Assembly: GCF_024223415.1 (NCBI RefSeq)
Contig: NZ_CP100502.1
DNA length: 64,000 bases
From: Escherichia coli
GTDB taxonomy: Bacteria; Pseudomonadota; Gammaproteobacteria; Enterobacterales; Enterobacteriaceae
Direction: 5' to 3' (one strand)
Under the pieces are notes generated by a model, which did not search any database, was not told where the DNA came from, and saw only the letters and a list, made by a program, of their open reading frames with translations. The translations under genes and the position numbers were made by a program. This document shows, one piece after another, positions 32 through 31,714 of this stretch. How positions within the stretch are numbered: position 1 is the stretch's first letter; each line of letters begins with the position of its first letter.

Positions 32-811
32 ATGCAGCACCTGCCGGCACCGATCCACCATGCCCGGGATGCCGCTCAGCTTCCTGTTGCCATCGATTAT
101 CCGGCAGCGCTGGCACTCCGCCAGATGTCGATGGTTCATGATGAACTGCCCAAATACCTGCTGGCCCCTGAAGTGAGCGCCCTGCTCCATTACGTCCCGG
201 ATCTGCGCCGCAAGATGCTGCTGGCCACACTGTGGAACACCGGTGCGCGCATTAATGAAGCACTGGCGCTGACGCGGGGGGATTTTTCGCTCACGCCTCC
301 GTATCCGTTTGTGCAGCTTGCGACCCTGAAACAACGGACCGAAAAAGCCGCCAGGACGGCAGGAAGAACGCCCGCCGGGCAGCAGACTCACCGGCTGGTT
401 CCGCTCTCCGACTCCTGGTACGTCAGCCAGCTGCAGACGATGGTGGCCACACTGAAAATCCCCATGGAACGGCGTAATAAACGAACAGGCAGGACAGAGA
501 AAGCGCGGATCTGGGAAGTGACGGACAGAACGGTCAGGACCTGGATTGGGGAGGCGGTTGCCGCCGCTGCCGCTGATGGAGTGACGTTCTCTGTCCCGGT
601 CACGCCACATACGTTCCGCCATTCCTATGCGATGCATATGCTGTATGCCGGTATACCGCTGAAGGTCCTGCAGAGTCTGATGGGGCATAAGTCCATCAGC
701 TCAACGGAGGTCTACACGAAGGTGTTTGCACTGGATGTGGCTGCACGGCACCGGGTGCAGTTTTCGATGCCTGAGTCCGATGCGGTGTCTATGCTCAAAA
801 GAATTCCATAA
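32..811 (+). CDS. Tyrosine site-specific recombinase, plasmid multimer resolvase (ResD-like)
   Basis: seq: track ORF 20..811 (GTG at 20, ATG at 32; no in-frame stop upstream, so the 5' end may lie outside the window). C-terminal 'TPHTFRHSYAMHMLYAGIPLKVLQSLMGHKSISSTEVYTKV' carries the HxxR...H...Y catalytic signature of tyrosine recombinases. known: ResD-type resolvases sit beside plasmid partition loci. Confidence 0.75.
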   Translation: MQHLPAPIHHARDAAQLPVAIDYPAALALRQMSMVHDELPKYLLAPEVSALLHYVPDLRRKMLLATLWNTGARINEALALTRGDFSLTPPYPFVQLATLKQRTEKAARTAGRTPAGQQTHRLVPLSDSWYVSQLQTMVATLKIPMERRNKRTGRTEKARIWEVTDRTVRTWIGEAVAAAAADGVTFSVPVTPHTFRHSYAMHMLYAGIPLKVLQSLMGHKSISSTEVYTKVFALDVAARHRVQFSMPESDAVSMLKRIP

Positions 812-829
812 GCTCTGACTTTTTTAAAT

Positions 830-990
830 CCCTTTCGGATATCTCATGGATATATTATCGGTATTTCATATTCTGTTGACATGCAGGACCGGTATAGAGT
901 AAAAAAACATCTATTGAGTACCTCTTGGATATCCGAAAGGTGTCTTATGGGGTCTTTATGGGTATTACATGTGGATTCTGGAGATACACT
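830..990. promoter_or_regulatory. Short GGATAT/ATATCC-type repeat cluster upstream of parA (candidate centromere/operator); similar motifs recur at 1636..1721 and 2031..2110
   Basis: seq: repeated 'ggatat', 'gggtatc', 'ggtatcc' motifs flank the parA-parB pair. infer: partition-site or autoregulatory operator. Confidence 0.3.
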
Positions 991-1635
991 ATGCCTGTTA
1001 TTGCTAATACGCATCCCAAAGGTGGTGTGGGTAAGACAACTTCATCCGTAAACATTGTTGGTGAAATGAAGTCTGATACAGTTGATCTGGATACTCATAC
1101 CGGGCTTTCTATCATTCTGGGGCTGAGACCTGAAGGAAAAGAAATTTCCGTGAAAGTACCCAAAACAGTGGATGAGTTAATCGAAATTATGACTCCCTAC
1201 AAGAACAGCGATAAGACGTTACTTATTGACTGTGGGGGATTTGACTCAGATCTTACCCGTACTGCGATTGCCTTTGCAGACTGCGTTATTGTTCCTTCAA
1301 AAGACTCCCTGACTGAACGTATTGGTTTGATGCATTTTGATGGAGTACTGGACGAAATCAGCTCTATCATGGGGACCGATATAACTGCTCACCTGTATCT
1401 CTGTAAAGTTAATCCTAACAAGAAGAAATTCCCTAAGCTTGATGCAATCCTGCCATCGTTCAAACATCTGAAGCTGATGAAGAGCCGCATTTCTGCTCGT
1501 GCAGAATTTGAGGATGTCATTGAGACTGGGATGGGAATCACTGAGTCTGTTCATGGGCGCTATTCGGCAGGAGGTAAGGAAGTTATTGCCCTGATCGAAG
1601 AAATCAATCATCTGATTGAAAATAACAAACAGTAA
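991..1635 (+). CDS. parA: ParA-family partition ATPase
   Basis: seq: deviant Walker A 'KGGVGKTT' right after the start 'MPVIANTHPKGGVGKTTSS'; GGAG RBS 9 nt upstream of ATG 991 (track ORF starts at 925). Confidence 0.8.
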   Translation: MPVIANTHPKGGVGKTTSSVNIVGEMKSDTVDLDTHTGLSIILGLRPEGKEISVKVPKTVDELIEIMTPYKNSDKTLLIDCGGFDSDLTRTAIAFADCVIVPSKDSLTERIGLMHFDGVLDEISSIMGTDITAHLYLCKVNPNKKKFPKLDAILPSFKHLKLMKSRISARAEFEDVIETGMGITESVHGRYSAGGKEVIALIEEINHLIENNKQ

Positions 1636-1721
1636 GGTGTGTCTATTGGGTATCCATATAGTATCCTTTGGGCTTTTAATGGATATCTTTTAAGTATCTA
1701 ACAAACATCCTGGGTTATCTC

Positions 1722-2030
1722 ATGAGCAAAGCGAAATTTAGTGCACAGGCTGAAAAACTGAAAAACCTGGTGGATTCTGCCAGATTACAAACTTCTTCTT
1801 CTGCCGTAACAGCAACAGCCCCGTCTCAGCCAAATGAAGGTGCAGAGGAAGTTTCAGGTCGTCCCGTGGCTGCCAGGACGAAGGCTAAGAATCTTAAGGC
1901 CATACCGCTGTCGTATTTTGAAGCTCATGCGGAACTTAAAGCGACCAGTAAAACATCTCTGGATTTTAGCTCATATATTATTGAGGCTATAAGAGAGAAG
2001 CTTGAACGTGATGGTGCAATAGGTCAATAA
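1722..2030 (+). CDS. Small partition/DNA-binding partner of ParA (ParB/ParG-like)
   Basis: seq: 102-aa ORF immediately downstream of parA, flanked by the GGATA-type repeats. infer: by position only. Confidence 0.4.
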   Translation: MSKAKFSAQAEKLKNLVDSARLQTSSSAVTATAPSQPNEGAEEVSGRPVAARTKAKNLKAIPLSYFEAHAELKATSKTSLDFSSYIIEAIREKLERDGAIGQ

Positions 2031-6184: not shown

Positions 6185-7111
6185 ATGCCAAACTGGTGCT
6201 CGAATCGTATGTATTTTTCTGGTGAACCGGCACAGATCGCTGAGATTAAACGACTGGCCAGCGGTGCAGTTACACCGCTTTATCGCCGCGCCACAAATGA
6301 AGGTATTCAGCTGTTTCTGGCCGGAAGTGCCGGACTTCTGCAGATCACTGAAAATATCCGCTCTGAACAGTGCCCCGGAGTGACGGCTGCCGGACGTGGT
6401 GCTGTATCGACGGAAAATATCGCGTTCACCCGCTGGCTGACACACCTGCAGAACGGTGTACTGCTGGATGAGCAAAACTGCCTGATGCTGCATGAACTCT
6501 GGCTGCAGAGCGGTACTGGACAGCGTCGCTGGGAAGGATTACCGGATGATGTCAGGGAAACCATCACTGTGCATTTCACCGCAAAAAGAGGTGACTGGTG
6601 TGACATCTGGGGTAGCGAGGATGTATCGGTGTGGTGGAACCGTCTGTGTGACAACGTAGTGCCGGAAAAAACCATGCCGTTTGACCTGCTGACGGTTCTG
6701 CCGACCCGCCTGGATGTTGAAGTGAATGGCTTTAATGGTGGTGTTCTGAACGGTGTTCCTTCTGCATATCACTGGTATACAGAACGGTATGGCGTGAAGT
6801 GGCCTTGTGGGTATGACCTGAATATCAGTAGTCAGGGAGACAACTGCATTCAGGTGGATTTCGACACGCCGTGGTGTCAGCCGGAAAGCGACGTTGTTGC
6901 AGCATTAAGCCGCCGTTTCGGCTGCACGCTGGAGCACTGGTACGCCGAACAGGGCTGCAATTTCTGTGGCTGGCAGTTGTATGAGCGCGGAGAGCTCGTT
7001 GATGTGCTCTGGGGGGAACTGGAATGGTCTTCCCCGACAGATGACGATGAGCTGCCGGAAGTCACCGGACCTGCGTGGATAGTCGACAAGGTGGCGCATT
7101 ACGGGGGATGA
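6185..7111 (+). CDS. Hypothetical Cys/Trp-rich protein
   Basis: seq: GAGAGGAG RBS before ATG 6185 (track ORF from 6140); many Cys and Trp ('NWCSNRMYF', 'FGCTLEHWYAEQGCNFCGWQ'); no motif I can name. Confidence 0.5.
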   Translation: MPNWCSNRMYFSGEPAQIAEIKRLASGAVTPLYRRATNEGIQLFLAGSAGLLQITENIRSEQCPGVTAAGRGAVSTENIAFTRWLTHLQNGVLLDEQNCLMLHELWLQSGTGQRRWEGLPDDVRETITVHFTAKRGDWCDIWGSEDVSVWWNRLCDNVVPEKTMPFDLLTVLPTRLDVEVNGFNGGVLNGVPSAYHWYTERYGVKWPCGYDLNISSQGDNCIQVDFDTPWCQPESDVVAALSRRFGCTLEHWYAEQGCNFCGWQLYERGELVDVLWGELEWSSPTDDDELPEVTGPAWIVDKVAHYGG

Positions 7112-7123
7112 AGTATGACGGAG

Positions 7124-7150
7124 ACGGGCGGGCAACCGCCCGTTTCTTTT
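7124..7150 (+). terminator. Rho-independent terminator
   Basis: seq: stem 'acgggcgg'/'ccgcccgt' with loop 'gcaa', then 'ttctttt', 13 nt after the stop of the 6185..7111 ORF. Confidence 0.55.
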
Positions 7151-7490
7151 CCGACAAAGGATGTCGCCGTGCTCCTCTGTTTACTGCGCCGGCTGATGCG
7201 GCGCGGCATAAACGCTGCCTGTGGTCAGTGTCCCGCGTCCGGCGGGCACGGGACGGGCGCTTTTACCGCTCCCGGCTGGCGTCGGTGACAGTGTACGCCA
7301 GCCTGTCGCCCTTTTCTGATGAACGCCCTTCAAGCCGCTTTCGCGGCATATTCTCGCCGTCAAAAAGACGACGGCTGCGATATTCCACGGTCGGCCTGAC
7401 CCGTTACCGGACGCGGTGAACAGCCCACAGGCAGCGGGGAACGGGCACCACAGGGGTGCCCTCCCGGTGCCCTCTGAGAAAGAAGGAGTG
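7150..7490. repeat. GC-rich hairpin-rich non-coding region (possible diverged ssi-like element) upstream of the methyltransferase
   Basis: seq: 340 nt with several hairpins (e.g. 'gggcaccacaggggtgccc') and weak resemblance to family B ('cgctcccggctggcg'). Confidence 0.2.
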
Positions 7491-29144: not shown

Positions 29145-30353
29145 TCAGAATTCGTTGTCTGTAGCAGGTGTGCGGGGCAGGATGTCGTCGGTGAGGGACC
29201 AGTTGGTCAGGATGCGGCGTTTCCGGTCGCGATCTGGTTGTGGTTCATCCCAGATAAGACCGAGACTGAGCATATCCCGCCGTAAGCCTTCCACCGCTTC
29301 ATCAACACAGGGTTCAGGGCAGGGAAGACCAAAACGCATGGCTTCGGCCTCTGCACGTGCAACGGCCACCACGCCAGCGCCTTCAATAAATCCTTTCGTG
29401 GTATTGGCGCGGTGTAATGCATAAAACAGCGTCCTGTCCACGCCTTTCAGCCAAATCCAGTTGGGTGGCGTAAGCCGCAGGTCATGTGCATACAGCCAGA
29501 CCAGCCCACTGCGGACGTAGCGATGTTGTTTCAGCCATTGCTGTGCTCCGTTGCTTTTAATCACTCTCTGGAAAGCTGATTTGGCCAGTGAATAAACAGG
29601 GGTACAGAATTTCCCACTGTCCCGTTTGCTTTTAATTCTGCATGAGAGGTTCAGTGTATCCATGAGCTTTAATGCTGCCTTACGATCATCCAGGAAATAC
29701 TGAAGACCAAATATGGCAAAGAGCGCTTTTTCATGTGGTGCCATGTCTTTCCAGGACGTTAAAGGTTTACCCAACTGGGCCATGAAACATCGTCTTGCAG
29801 CTGCAACATCGAGCTGCATATTGGTGATGAGAGTATGCTGCTCGACAAATGCTTCCGGGGTGAGAGCAACCCGCCGTTCAGGTCGTTTGCCACCATGAAA
29901 GAGTTTTTCCGGATCACCATCTGCCAGTACAGGGGCGATAGCAGGGGACAACGAAGCAAAGATGTGTGGCAGTCGGGTAATATCTACTGGTCTGCGGGTG
30001 AAACGACTTTGTCCCGGATGTTGATACCACTCCCACAAACACCAGAGTGTCACAGGTAAGAGGTACATCCACAGAATACCTATGGTCTGCTCCATGACAT
30101 TAACCCACTGGCTATAGCTTATGTTGGCGGCGTTGTTACCGGTCATGGCAAGCAGGTTGTATCGTGGTGCTGCATAGTTATGAAATGGTCCCCAGTCAAC
30201 CAGTCCCCATAAGGTATGAAGAATCAGGCAGCTGGCGTAAACCACTTCCGGCAAGAATAACCATATAACGAATAGCAGCAGGATAAGAAGGACACCAACA
30301 GCGCCCCATATCTGCATAGGATCTTCTGCGACAGGCTGTCGATTGTAAGACAT
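29145..30353 (-). CDS. trbA: TrbA, membrane transfer protein
   Basis: seq: 402 aa with hydrophobic N-terminus; position in trbCBA. Confidence 0.7.
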   Translation of the reverse strand: MSYNRQPVAEDPMQIWGAVGVLLILLLFVIWLFLPEVVYASCLILHTLWGLVDWGPFHNYAAPRYNLLAMTGNNAANISYSQWVNVMEQTIGILWMYLLPVTLWCLWEWYQHPGQSRFTRRPVDITRLPHIFASLSPAIAPVLADGDPEKLFHGGKRPERRVALTPEAFVEQHTLITNMQLDVAAARRCFMAQLGKPLTSWKDMAPHEKALFAIFGLQYFLDDRKAALKLMDTLNLSCRIKSKRDSGKFCTPVYSLAKSAFQRVIKSNGAQQWLKQHRYVRSGLVWLYAHDLRLTPPNWIWLKGVDRTLFYALHRANTTKGFIEGAGVVAVARAEAEAMRFGLPCPEPCVDEAVEGLRRDMLSLGLIWDEPQPDRDRKRRILTNWSLTDDILPRTPATDNEF

Positions 30354-30505
30354 GACAAAGTCTCCATTTCTGGAATTTAAATCAAACGGAAAGGTTAAAA
30401 ATTTATTTGCAGGCGATAAGAGCTAACCAGAGGAATTAGCCGTGCGATAAAAGGATTGTTGCAGATACGAAAGTCGTTAGAATAGCTGCGGGCGCTTGAG
30501 GCTGT

Positions 30506-30790
30506 ATGCCGAAAGCGTTTTGTGGACGGTATACAGCAGAAAGCCCCTGGAGATTTTTTTATCAATCAACCAAGGGCTCTACTGTAATGCCTAGACAACA
30601 TTATAGTAGCCCGATAACCGCCGTAAGGCAATGGAGGGGCTATGATGCCACAGCGAACGTTTTTAATGATGTTAATCGTCATCTGTGTGACGATTCTGTG
30701 TTTTGTCTGGATGGTGAGGGATTCGCTTTGCGGACTCCGGCTCCAGCAGGGAAACACAGTGCTTGTGGCAACGTTAGCCTACGAAGTTAA
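30506..30790 (+). CDS. pndC: pndC (mok-like) overlapping reading frame
   Basis: seq: ORF overlapping pndA in another frame and ending 7 nt before its stop, as in hok/mok loci. Confidence 0.45.
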   Translation: MPKAFCGRYTAESPWRFFYQSTKGSTVMPRQHYSSPITAVRQWRGYDATANVFNDVNRHLCDDSVFCLDGEGFALRTPAPAGKHSACGNVSLRS

Positions 30791-30797
30791 ACGTTAA
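30645..30797 (+). CDS. pndA: PndA, Hok-family type I toxin
   Basis: seq: 50 aa 'MPQRTFLMMLIVICVTILCFVWMVRDSLCGLRLQQGNTVLVATLAYEVKR' recognised as Hok/PndA; GGAGG RBS 7 nt upstream; below the track cutoff. Confidence 0.85.
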   Translation: MPQRTFLMMLIVICVTILCFVWMVRDSLCGLRLQQGNTVLVATLAYEVKR

Positions 30798-30868
30798 CGG
30801 GCAACACGGCGGCAGGTTTTCTGCCGCCGCTTTGTTGCGAAGGCTGACCTCATTGCGCCCTTTCTTCT

Positions 30869-31120
30869 TCAATGAAGCGTATCCGGTATTGTTTCATTTT
30901 CCCTGAAGCCGATTAGCTCCAGCCGAATGCCTTTGCCATCGGGGGCCACGTTCTGCATTTCGCAGATACCACGTCGGGTCATGAGTGTGAAGGCTGTCAT
31001 TGCCAGCATGGCTAACGCGTTTTCCTCGCTTCCGCTGCGTTTCTCGAGAGCATCGGCAATTTCTTCTATGCTCCCCACCTGAAAGCAAGAGTCGAATTCT
31101 TTACTCCACTTTTCTGACAT
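30869..31120 (-). CDS. Hypothetical protein
   Basis: seq: 83-aa ORF convergent with pndA; weak RBS. Confidence 0.3.
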   Translation of the reverse strand: MSEKWSKEFDSCFQVGSIEEIADALEKRSGSEENALAMLAMTAFTLMTRRGICEMQNVAPDGKGIRLELIGFRENETIPDTLH

Positions 31121-31263: not shown

Positions 31264-31294
31264 CAACAGATGTAAAAAAACCGACTGGTGAGGT
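31264..31294. terminator. Bidirectional Rho-independent terminator
   Basis: seq: 'aaaaaaaccgacTGGTGAGgtcggttttttt', 6-bp stem flanked by an A-run and a T-run. Confidence 0.6.
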
Positions 31295-31336
31295 CGGTTT
31301 TTTTACTGTTCCGTTACAGAGTGGGTGGCCCTGACC

Positions 31337-31360
31337 GGAGGAAATCTCTTTTCAACTAAC
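31337..31360 (+). repeat. 24-bp direct repeat copy 1 (ggaggaaatctcttttcaactaac)
   Basis: seq: repeated at 31524..31547 with one mismatch; followed by TATAAT-like hexamers at 31366 and 31403; its first 10 nt are the reverse complement of 31593..31602. Confidence 0.8.
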
Positions 31361-31523
31361 GTTCTTATAATAGCGAGCTGTTCATTTGATAGCAACCATC
31401 CTTATAATCCGCAGGTTAGCTCTGTCTGGCGACACTTCTGCCGTGATATCCATCGGGACTATGGATGCAAGATTTTAAGTCCTGGCTGAACAAACAGGTG
31501 GTGCTGTGTTCAGTGCTCTGGCA

Positions 31524-31547
31524 GGAGGAAGTCTCTTTTCAACTAAC
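31524..31547 (+). repeat. 24-bp direct repeat copy 2 (ggaggaagtctcttttcaactaac)
   Basis: seq: see copy 1; lies about 70 nt upstream of the small hydrophobic ORF. Confidence 0.8.
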
Positions 31548-31618
31548 ACTGAAAGTGCCGTTGTGACAGGCAATGTAAGAGTAAGCAACGGTGATTTCCT
31601 CCAGTGATGGAGAAGCGG

Positions 31619-31714
31619 ATGATTAATCTGTTAATCATCGTTCTCAGGGCAGTAGTTGCCGTTGCAAACGCGCTGATTGCTGTTCTGGAACTGATCCGGG
31701 AACTTGTCGACTGA
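31619..31714 (+). CDS. Candidate type I toxin-like small hydrophobic peptide (DinQ/TisB-like)
   Basis: seq: 31 aa 'MINLLIIVLRAVVAVANALIAVLELIRELVD', GGAG 6 nt upstream, terminator downstream. infer: resembles DinQ/TisB-type helical toxins from memory. Confidence 0.4.
   Translation: MINLLIIVLRAVVAVANALIAVLELIRELVD

Follow-up and report, generated by a model that had tools for sequence, protein, structure and literature searches.

The closest known systems to the locus studied here are the pnd modules of plasmids R64, R483 and R16, with R64 used for the DNA comparison. The hok/mok/sok (parB) system of plasmid R1 has in common with pnd a toxin of approximately 50 amino acids, an overlapping leader frame, pairing between the 5' and 3' ends of the mRNA, a target hairpin whose loop contains CUAG, and an antisense promoter that overlaps the Shine-Dalgarno (SD) region of the toxin gene; the pnd leader matches the Rfam model common to both systems over its complete length. 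Hok of R1 is only about 32% identical to PndA (tblastn, E = 2.6e-7), and, as the antisense sequences of R1 and pnd differ, no cross-regulation between the two is expected. The srnB/srnC and flm (F-type) systems and the Hok loci of Proteus and Vibrio share the Rfam leader with pnd (68-105 bits); the toxins of srnB, Proteus and Vibrio are 45-61% identical to PndA, and their tac and fbi elements differ from those of pnd by compensatory changes.

We considered a 64,000-nt stretch of Escherichia coli DNA (hereinafter, the window). The locus is almost certainly the pndBCA post-segregational killing module of an IncI1-type conjugative plasmid, working like hok/mok/sok of R1. The module in the window is an intact, textbook, already known one: studies of pnd go back to the 1980s, thousands of plasmid records annotate it, and the module itself adds nothing new. 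Many conjugative plasmids of the IncI type from Escherichia, Salmonella and Shigella contain the segment 30380..30860 (481 nt) with 100% identity; in total, 1943 plasmid records match it, 787 of them at 99% identity or higher. The pnd module of R64 has 99.5% DNA identity to the window over 411 nt (two differences), an identical PndA, and the same neighbours trbA, dqlB, excA and traY. In the window, trbC, trbB and trbA are situated upstream of pnd, trbA ending 137 nt before the start of the pnd mRNA, and a small hypothetical gene, dqlB, excA and traY follow downstream. As this gene order is the same as in R64, the IncI1 reference, the window derives from an IncI1-type plasmid. Furuya and Komano (1996), judging by the title cited in PMC10286972, placed pnd within the transfer region of R64. 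A search for a second hok-type locus within the 64,000-nt window found none. The presence of pnd identifies the window as backbone of an IncI1-type plasmid whose addiction system is intact.

The original prediction had claimed a hok/mok-type pnd module at 30506-30797. Its nature is confirmed by the agreement of Pfam matches, Rfam matches and the identity to R64, the Pfam and Rfam scores being well outside chance expectation. The module does lie in this span, but 30506 is only the first ATG of a maximal open reading frame (ORF), and the functional unit, with the promoter, the 5' tac element and the 3' fbi element included, is approximately 30456..30865 and hence exceeds the predicted one. Coordinates are given in Table 1, including those of the elements omitted by genome annotation (pndC, PndB, tac and fbi). 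To follow variation, we used a set of eight variants, comprising the window, R64, and six further pnd copies from IncK/Z, IncB/O and IncI-gamma plasmids, the latter being 90.5-96.6% identical to the window.

Table 1. Features of the pnd locus and of the adjacent agrB-dqlB module (window coordinates)
Feature	Position	Strand	Basis
pnd mRNA promoter: -35 TTGTTG (30456..30461), 16-nt spacer, -10 TAGAAT (30478..30483)	30456..30483	+	predicted; conserved
Full-length pnd mRNA, ~374 nt	30490..30865	+	5' end from Rfam start and -10 spacing; 3' end from U-rich run
tac-like 5' element, GGGCGCUUGAGG	30490..30501	+	folds; invariant in 8 variants
Leader 5' hairpin	30501..30537	+	folds; matches Rfam consensus helix
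PndB antisense RNA (antitoxin), ~60 nt	30536..30596	-	predicted; each end uncertain by a few nt
Antisense target hairpin: stems 30581..30589 / 30599..30607, 9-nt loop 30590..30598, CCUAGACAA	30581..30607	+	predicted fold
pndC, mok-like frame, 67 codons, stop TAA 30788..30790	30587..30790	+	67 codons in 8/8 variants
pndB promoter-like site: -35 TTGCCT (30631 to 30626), 17-nt spacer, -10 TACTAT (30608 to 30603)	30603..30631	-	predicted
pndA Shine-Dalgarno GGAGG	30633..30637	+	read in sequence; consensus structure
pndA, 50-aa Hok/Gef-family membrane toxin, MPQRTFLMMLIVICVTILCFVWMVRDSLCGLRLQQGNTVLVATLAYEVKR	30645..30797	+	Pfam HOK_GEF; R64 identity
G+C-rich 3' hairpin, 10-bp stem with 8 G-C pairs	30807..30829	+	between stop codon and fbi
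fbi-like 3' element, CCUCAUUGCGCCC, complementary to tac	30848..30860	+	starts 50 nt after stop codon
AgrB-like small RNA	31272..31359	-	Rfam RF02891, 55 bits
DqlB, 31-aa DinQ-like toxin	31619..31714	+	NCBIfam NF041473, E = 9e-19

The toxin appears in the ORF list as an ATG ORF of 51 amino acids (30642..30797, MMPQ...), the 50-aa form starting from ATG 30645. As the five variants that diverge most (approximately 91% identity; IncK/Z, IncI-gamma and IncB/O types) have GCG in place of ATG 30642, the conserved start of pndA is ATG 30645. The Pfam family HOK_GEF (PF01848) matches the toxin with 47.5 bits against the cut-off of 22 (E = 1.3e-12). The NCBIfam models HokA and Hok also match it (E = 3e-19 and 1.2e-11), both under their curated cut-offs; hence PndA is a member of the family and not a HokA equivalog. 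The 50-aa frame claimed by the earlier reading is therefore present, matches Hok/Gef and has a translation identical to PndA of R64, and in the alignment to R64 pnd the toxin frame is undisrupted relative to functional pndA. The description of the toxin as unannotated was true of the ORF track used at that time, but not of public records, which annotate the gene: the exact protein is recorded as "Protein PndA" or "Hok/Gef family protein", and its UniRef cluster is named after the Swiss-Prot entry PNDA2_ECOLX. The same RefSeq protein accession, WP_001331364.1, is used in both R64 and pSTM7, the latter being 100% identical to the window in this region. In the eight variants, 10 of the 16 variable sites of pndA fall on codon position 3. 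The SD sequence of pndA would be sequestered in the full-length RNA, as in the consensus fold 30637..30643 is paired with 30606..30612.

The mok-like frame pndC lies in the -1 frame relative to pndA and, as had been seen in the ORF list (30506..30790), stops 7 nt before the pndA stop. In that list it extends 27 codons further back, to ATG 30506, yielding a 94-codon ORF. In three of the eight variants a 1-nt deletion breaks the frame of this extension, while the 67 codons are always kept; thus, 30506 is the boundary of a maximal ORF, not of a gene, and, as judged from conservation of the frame, the conserved start of pndC is ATG 30587 rather than ATG 30506.

The substitutions in the overlap region are distributed unequally between the two frames, with 1 synonymous and 16 non-synonymous substitutions in the pndC frame versus 8 and 9, respectively, in the pndA frame. 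Thus, selection acts on PndA, and pndC resembles a frame that needs only to be translated, as described for mok. By analogy, pndC would be translated to permit translation of pndA, its own peptide probably not being selected, as far as the substitution pattern can tell. Pfam and NCBIfam searches with the pndC frame yielded no family match. The exact 67-aa product is recorded as "ORF1" or "hypothetical protein", and its variant with two changed residues (P0020), as "post-segregation killing protein".

The same observations bear on whether the complete ORF 30506..30790 could be a genuine protein-coding gene with a product that matters, which we consider very unlikely. This ORF is open in the window, has GAGG 4 nt upstream of ATG 30506, and its 94-aa products are deposited in databases, some of the entries being named "post-segregation killing protein". 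On the other hand, its first 27 codons are out of frame in three variants, 16 of the 17 substitutions in the overlap alter the amino acid in its frame, no Pfam or NCBIfam family is matched, and ATG 30506 is located inside the stem of the 5' hairpin. We rejected the 94-codon gene on the indels, the substitution pattern and the absent family match, and retain the 67-codon pndC.

The promoter hexamers of the pnd mRNA are weak, with 3/6 and 5/6 matches to the consensus. A sigma-70 consensus scan of 30350..30950 that required at least 4/6 matches per hexamer and at least 9/12 overall listed no site; a relaxed scan was run at 8/12, and the sites it yielded (8-9/12) were accepted solely on the recurrence of their positions in relatives. 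Nine pnd copies keep the two hexamers and the motif GATTGT(T/G)GC, while the spacer varies. The 3' end of the mRNA was taken as the U-rich run after fbi, within 10 nt in either direction.

The leader is matched by the Rfam model RF01794, named "sok antitoxin", at 30490..30647 on the plus strand over its complete length (model positions 1-157 of 157; 134.2 bits versus the gathering threshold of 59; E = 5.6e-32). The RF01794 consensus opens with the tac sequence and closes in the toxin AUG, and in all five other loci matched it lies on the toxin-coding strand; hence RF01794 models the leader of the toxin mRNA. If the name is read literally, the plus-strand feature 30490..30647 would be the antitoxin RNA itself. 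The name and the strand of the match are all that speaks for this reading, whose probability is negligible given the extent of the model and its strand in the five other loci; besides, both the strand-asymmetric hairpin and the promoter-like site described below are on the minus strand. We rejected the plus-strand match as the antitoxin and treat it as the mRNA leader. Under a literal reading, the annotated antitoxin would be 2.5 times as long as the real one and on the incorrect strand, which is a trap for automated annotation.

In the single-sequence fold, the whole 377-nt stretch folds with z = -9.4 and both ends paired; in the consensus fold of the eight variants, columns 1-11 are paired with columns 360-371. 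The models suggest two partners for tac, fbi in the full-length RNA and AAAGCCCC (30540..30547) in the leader folded alone. The tac-fbi duplex in the window has -21.7 kcal/mol, 6 of 300 shuffles being equally good. The pairing keeps its position in pO104_H21 as well, and four of the five distant homologues tested have it too, with compensatory changes: a Proteus plasmid, the F-type srnB locus and two Vibrio plasmids differ in their 5' sequences (GGGUGCUUGA, GGGUGUCUG, GGGCGCUCUCGGCU and GGGAGCU), and each has the complement located 50-61 nt past its stop codon. The compensatory evidence for tac-fbi comes from these distant homologues only, as in consensus folding of the close pnd variants no pair changed on both sides, the changes being one-sided and compatible with pairing. 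In the 5' hairpin, all four variable sites still pair, via G-U or G-C changes. The stem of the 3' hairpin is kept across the variants, while its loop varies. Just past fbi (30862..30880), 16 of the 19 columns are variable among the pnd variants, compared to 8-33% of columns inside the unit; this sharp drop of similarity directly after fbi thus marks the end of the pnd unit.

The hairpin 30807..30829 is likely the point where 3' exonucleolytic trimming stops, by analogy with R1, and would then define the truncated translatable mRNA. In work of the Gerdes laboratory, the equivalent hairpin in hok of R1 is reportedly where the trimming stops. The minimum free energy fold of the 3'-truncated RNA (30490..30833) did not form the expected tac stem, which is formed only by the isolated leader, the latter folding in agreement with the Rfam model; hence the refolding step is adopted here from the literature.

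One distant homologue has no fbi partner, and a transposase gene of the IS421 family is located 79 nt downstream of its toxin stop. Alternatively, the pnd copy in the window could be decayed and non-functional, like several chromosomal hok loci, which are often inactive (bioRxiv 10.1101/2025.08.07.668861). This general frequency is the only argument for decay, nothing specific to the window pointing to it, and we regard it as extremely unlikely: both promoters, tac, the target hairpin, pndC, the SD sequence, pndA, the 3' hairpin and fbi are present and match R64, and there is no IS element near the locus, in contrast to the IS-flanked homologue without the fbi partner. With every element present, we rejected decay and treat the module as intact.

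Sequence features (the promoter-like site, the fold and the strand asymmetry) argue strongly for a minus-strand antisense gene over the pndC start, as the original prediction had proposed. Promoter and terminator prediction on the minus strand found TTGCCT and TACTAT separated by 17 nt, together with a hairpin followed by a U-run. An alternative -10 box is a perfect TATAAT at 30605 to 30600, overlapping TACTAT. The -10 region is invariant in the eight variants, and minus-strand promoter-like sites at comparable places are found in pO104_H21 as well as in the Proteus, srnB and Vibrio D3112 loci, the latter being three of the five distant homologues that were scanned. The predicted PndB consists of an unpaired 5' tail of 12 nt, the terminator hairpin, and UUUCU (-25 kcal/mol, z = -4.1). 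The tail is complementary to the target loop and to the AUG of pndC; the latter is situated in the 5' stem of the target hairpin, and the loop contains CUAG of the YUNR type.

In all eight variants, the PndB hairpin has -20.6 to -21.7 kcal/mol on the minus strand versus -8.1 to -14.7 kcal/mol on the plus strand, where it is weaker because G-U pairs on one strand correspond to A-C mismatches on the other. The stability of the hairpin is conserved on the minus strand only, and therefore a structured RNA has been selected on that strand. The antisense RNA had been thought impossible to delimit by eye; approximate limits, from 30596 to 30536 on the minus strand, could nevertheless be obtained. They agree with a pndB target of 63 nt, which we derived from the overlap percentages (87.3% and 14.3%) given in PMC3562002.

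The toxin identity, the leader structure, the tac-fbi pairing with compensatory changes, the selection on the pndA frame, and the signatures of the minus-strand RNA and its promoter have been demonstrated here, and, as all parts are present and match, the published hok/pnd mechanism is the best explanation of the locus. The RNA half-lives, 3' processing, translational coupling, RNase III cleavage and membrane killing in the following scheme are adopted from published hok/sok and pnd studies. The weak promoter would yield a stable mRNA, in which tac is paired with fbi and the ribosome-binding sites are buried, so that this full-length form would be neither translated nor bound by the antisense RNA. 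Slow trimming of the 3' end to the hairpin would remove fbi, and the leader would refold, exposing the target hairpin and the pndC start. In a plasmid-bearing cell, the short-lived PndB would be transcribed from the opposite strand, and its free 5' tail would pair first to the target loop and next to the region of the pndC start, blocking the translation of pndC and the coupled translation of pndA; the duplex would be degraded. In a plasmid-free cell, PndB would decay first, and the leftover processed mRNA would be translated, PndA then damaging the inner membrane and killing the cell.

The function is supported by experiments on nearly identical loci. [quoted passage not shown] The IncI1 plasmid pJIE512b was cured with the interference plasmid pJIMK56 lacking intact pndA; neutralising pndBCA sufficed (PMC5330492). 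R64 lost its stability once pnd was inactivated (Furuya and Komano 1996, cited through PMC4083329); in pCT, the inactivation had no effect on stability (PMC4083329). The contribution of pnd to stability can be masked by other systems.

It could also be suggested that the module is intact, while its main role is different from segregant killing, e.g. phage exclusion or abortive infection, a membrane response to stress, or competition between related plasmids. We consider this improbable, if less so than the readings rejected above. Inactivation of pnd alone destabilised neither pCT nor pESBL, exclusion of phage T4 has been reported for hok/sok of R1, and the balanced frequencies of the loop alleles (see below) hint at selection arising from interactions between plasmids. 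At the same time, there is direct evidence of the killing of plasmid-free cells in pESBL, maintenance was observed in R64 (as cited) and addiction in pJIE512b, and the sequence indicates no phage sensor. We thus retain segregant killing as the main role of the module.

The only part of the locus worth a further look is the polymorphism of the antisense recognition loop. Both differences between the window and R64 are located in this loop, at 30591 (C in the window, T in R64) and 30593 (A and C, respectively). As a result, codons 2-3 of pndC encode Pro-Arg in the window versus Leu-Arg in R64, and the 5' tail of PndB differs. Among the eight variants, loop positions 30591, 30593 and 30594 are polymorphic, while the 21 surrounding stem positions are invariant; the polymorphic sites belong at the same time to the PndB tail and to pndC codons 2-3. 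We counted the alleles by exact 35-mer searches of the plasmid collection, where approximately 1880 records contain the otherwise near-invariant 35-mer, the 32 nt flanking the three polymorphic positions being almost invariant. The allele of the window, CCTAGA, occurs in 703 records; CTTCGA, the allele of R64 and ColIb-P9, in 578; CCTCAA, in 556; and CATCGA, in 79. Position 30592 is U throughout, and only purines occur at 30594. When metagenome contigs were searched by pattern for the target hairpin with its loop left free, there was no match, and hence the counts refer to the plasmid collection.

The loop polymorphism is compatible with antisense specificity classes; relaxed constraint could explain it as well. 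Tentatively, and with the odds rather against it, the allele pattern may mean that the three loop nucleotides define at least four pnd specificity classes, such that PndB of one class would poorly neutralise the mRNA of another. As the antisense RNA and its target are transcribed from the same DNA, each loop mutation alters both together, and such coupled mutation would let the specificity change while the function is retained. A parallel for such a change is provided by the single-base incompatibility mutants of ColE1 RNA I. With U fixed at 30592 and a purine kept at 30594, the U-turn of the loop would persist. The classes would protect the killer of one plasmid from being disarmed by a related plasmid and would make tandem pnd modules independent. 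If they exist, they matter for plasmid curing by pndB supplied in trans and for competition among resistance plasmids of the I-complex. All 125 IncI1 plasmids were stated to have identical pndB (PMC5330492). This statement would conflict with the loop alleles if PndB starts at approximately 30596, and would fit them if the published limits of pndB exclude the loop.

Several plasmids contain additional pnd copies or fragments. In pNDM-T2 (NZ_MN335919.1; positions 867..2000 of locus L018), there are two complete tandem pnd modules approximately 720 bp apart, with unlike loop alleles (CCTCAA and CATCGA) and unlike toxin variants. In pSF-468-2 (NZ_CP012627.1; positions 7111..7192 of locus L020), an orphan 85-bp copy of pndB only, extending from the terminator hairpin to the -10 box, is situated approximately 155 bp upstream of a full pnd; it is 91.7% identical and has a fifth loop sequence, and the full pnd is the same as that of the window. 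The window does not contain the extra 85-bp pndB-like fragment. Such orphan fragments and tandem copies probably explain the extra places found in the searches (approximately 2,690 places in approximately 1,880 records). The IncFIB plasmid pI66 (LC620533.1; positions 601..822 of locus L010) contains a partial pnd-like leader fragment, about 76% identical, beside a transposase gene; it has no match to the Rfam sok model and no annotated toxin, and is probably a decayed copy.

Downstream of pnd in the window, an ORF of 83 amino acids (30869..31120, minus strand) is convergent with pnd, its stop codon being 9 nt from the end of fbi. In R64 and related plasmids it is listed as hypothetical protein WP_001291964.1, and neither Pfam nor NCBIfam has a family that matches it.

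A second type I toxin-antitoxin module, agrB-dqlB, is located at 31272..31714, approximately 400 nt downstream of pnd. Like pnd, it comprises a small hydrophobic toxin under the control of an antisense RNA, but the toxin is DinQ-like and belongs to an unrelated family, and the antisense RNA is encoded approximately 165 nt upstream of the matched site and pairs via a 24-nt repeat, instead of overlapping the transcript as in pnd. The 5' end of the AgrB-like small RNA lies within one copy of this repeat (31337..31360), and the second copy (31524..31547; 23 of 24 positions matching) lies in the presumed dqlB leader. On an IncX3 plasmid, agrB-dqlB was shown in 2025 to be a plasmid-stabilising toxin-antitoxin system (PMC12317039). 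It may be the "additional TA" that was postulated but unfound in the 2020 study of pESBL (PMC7602700).
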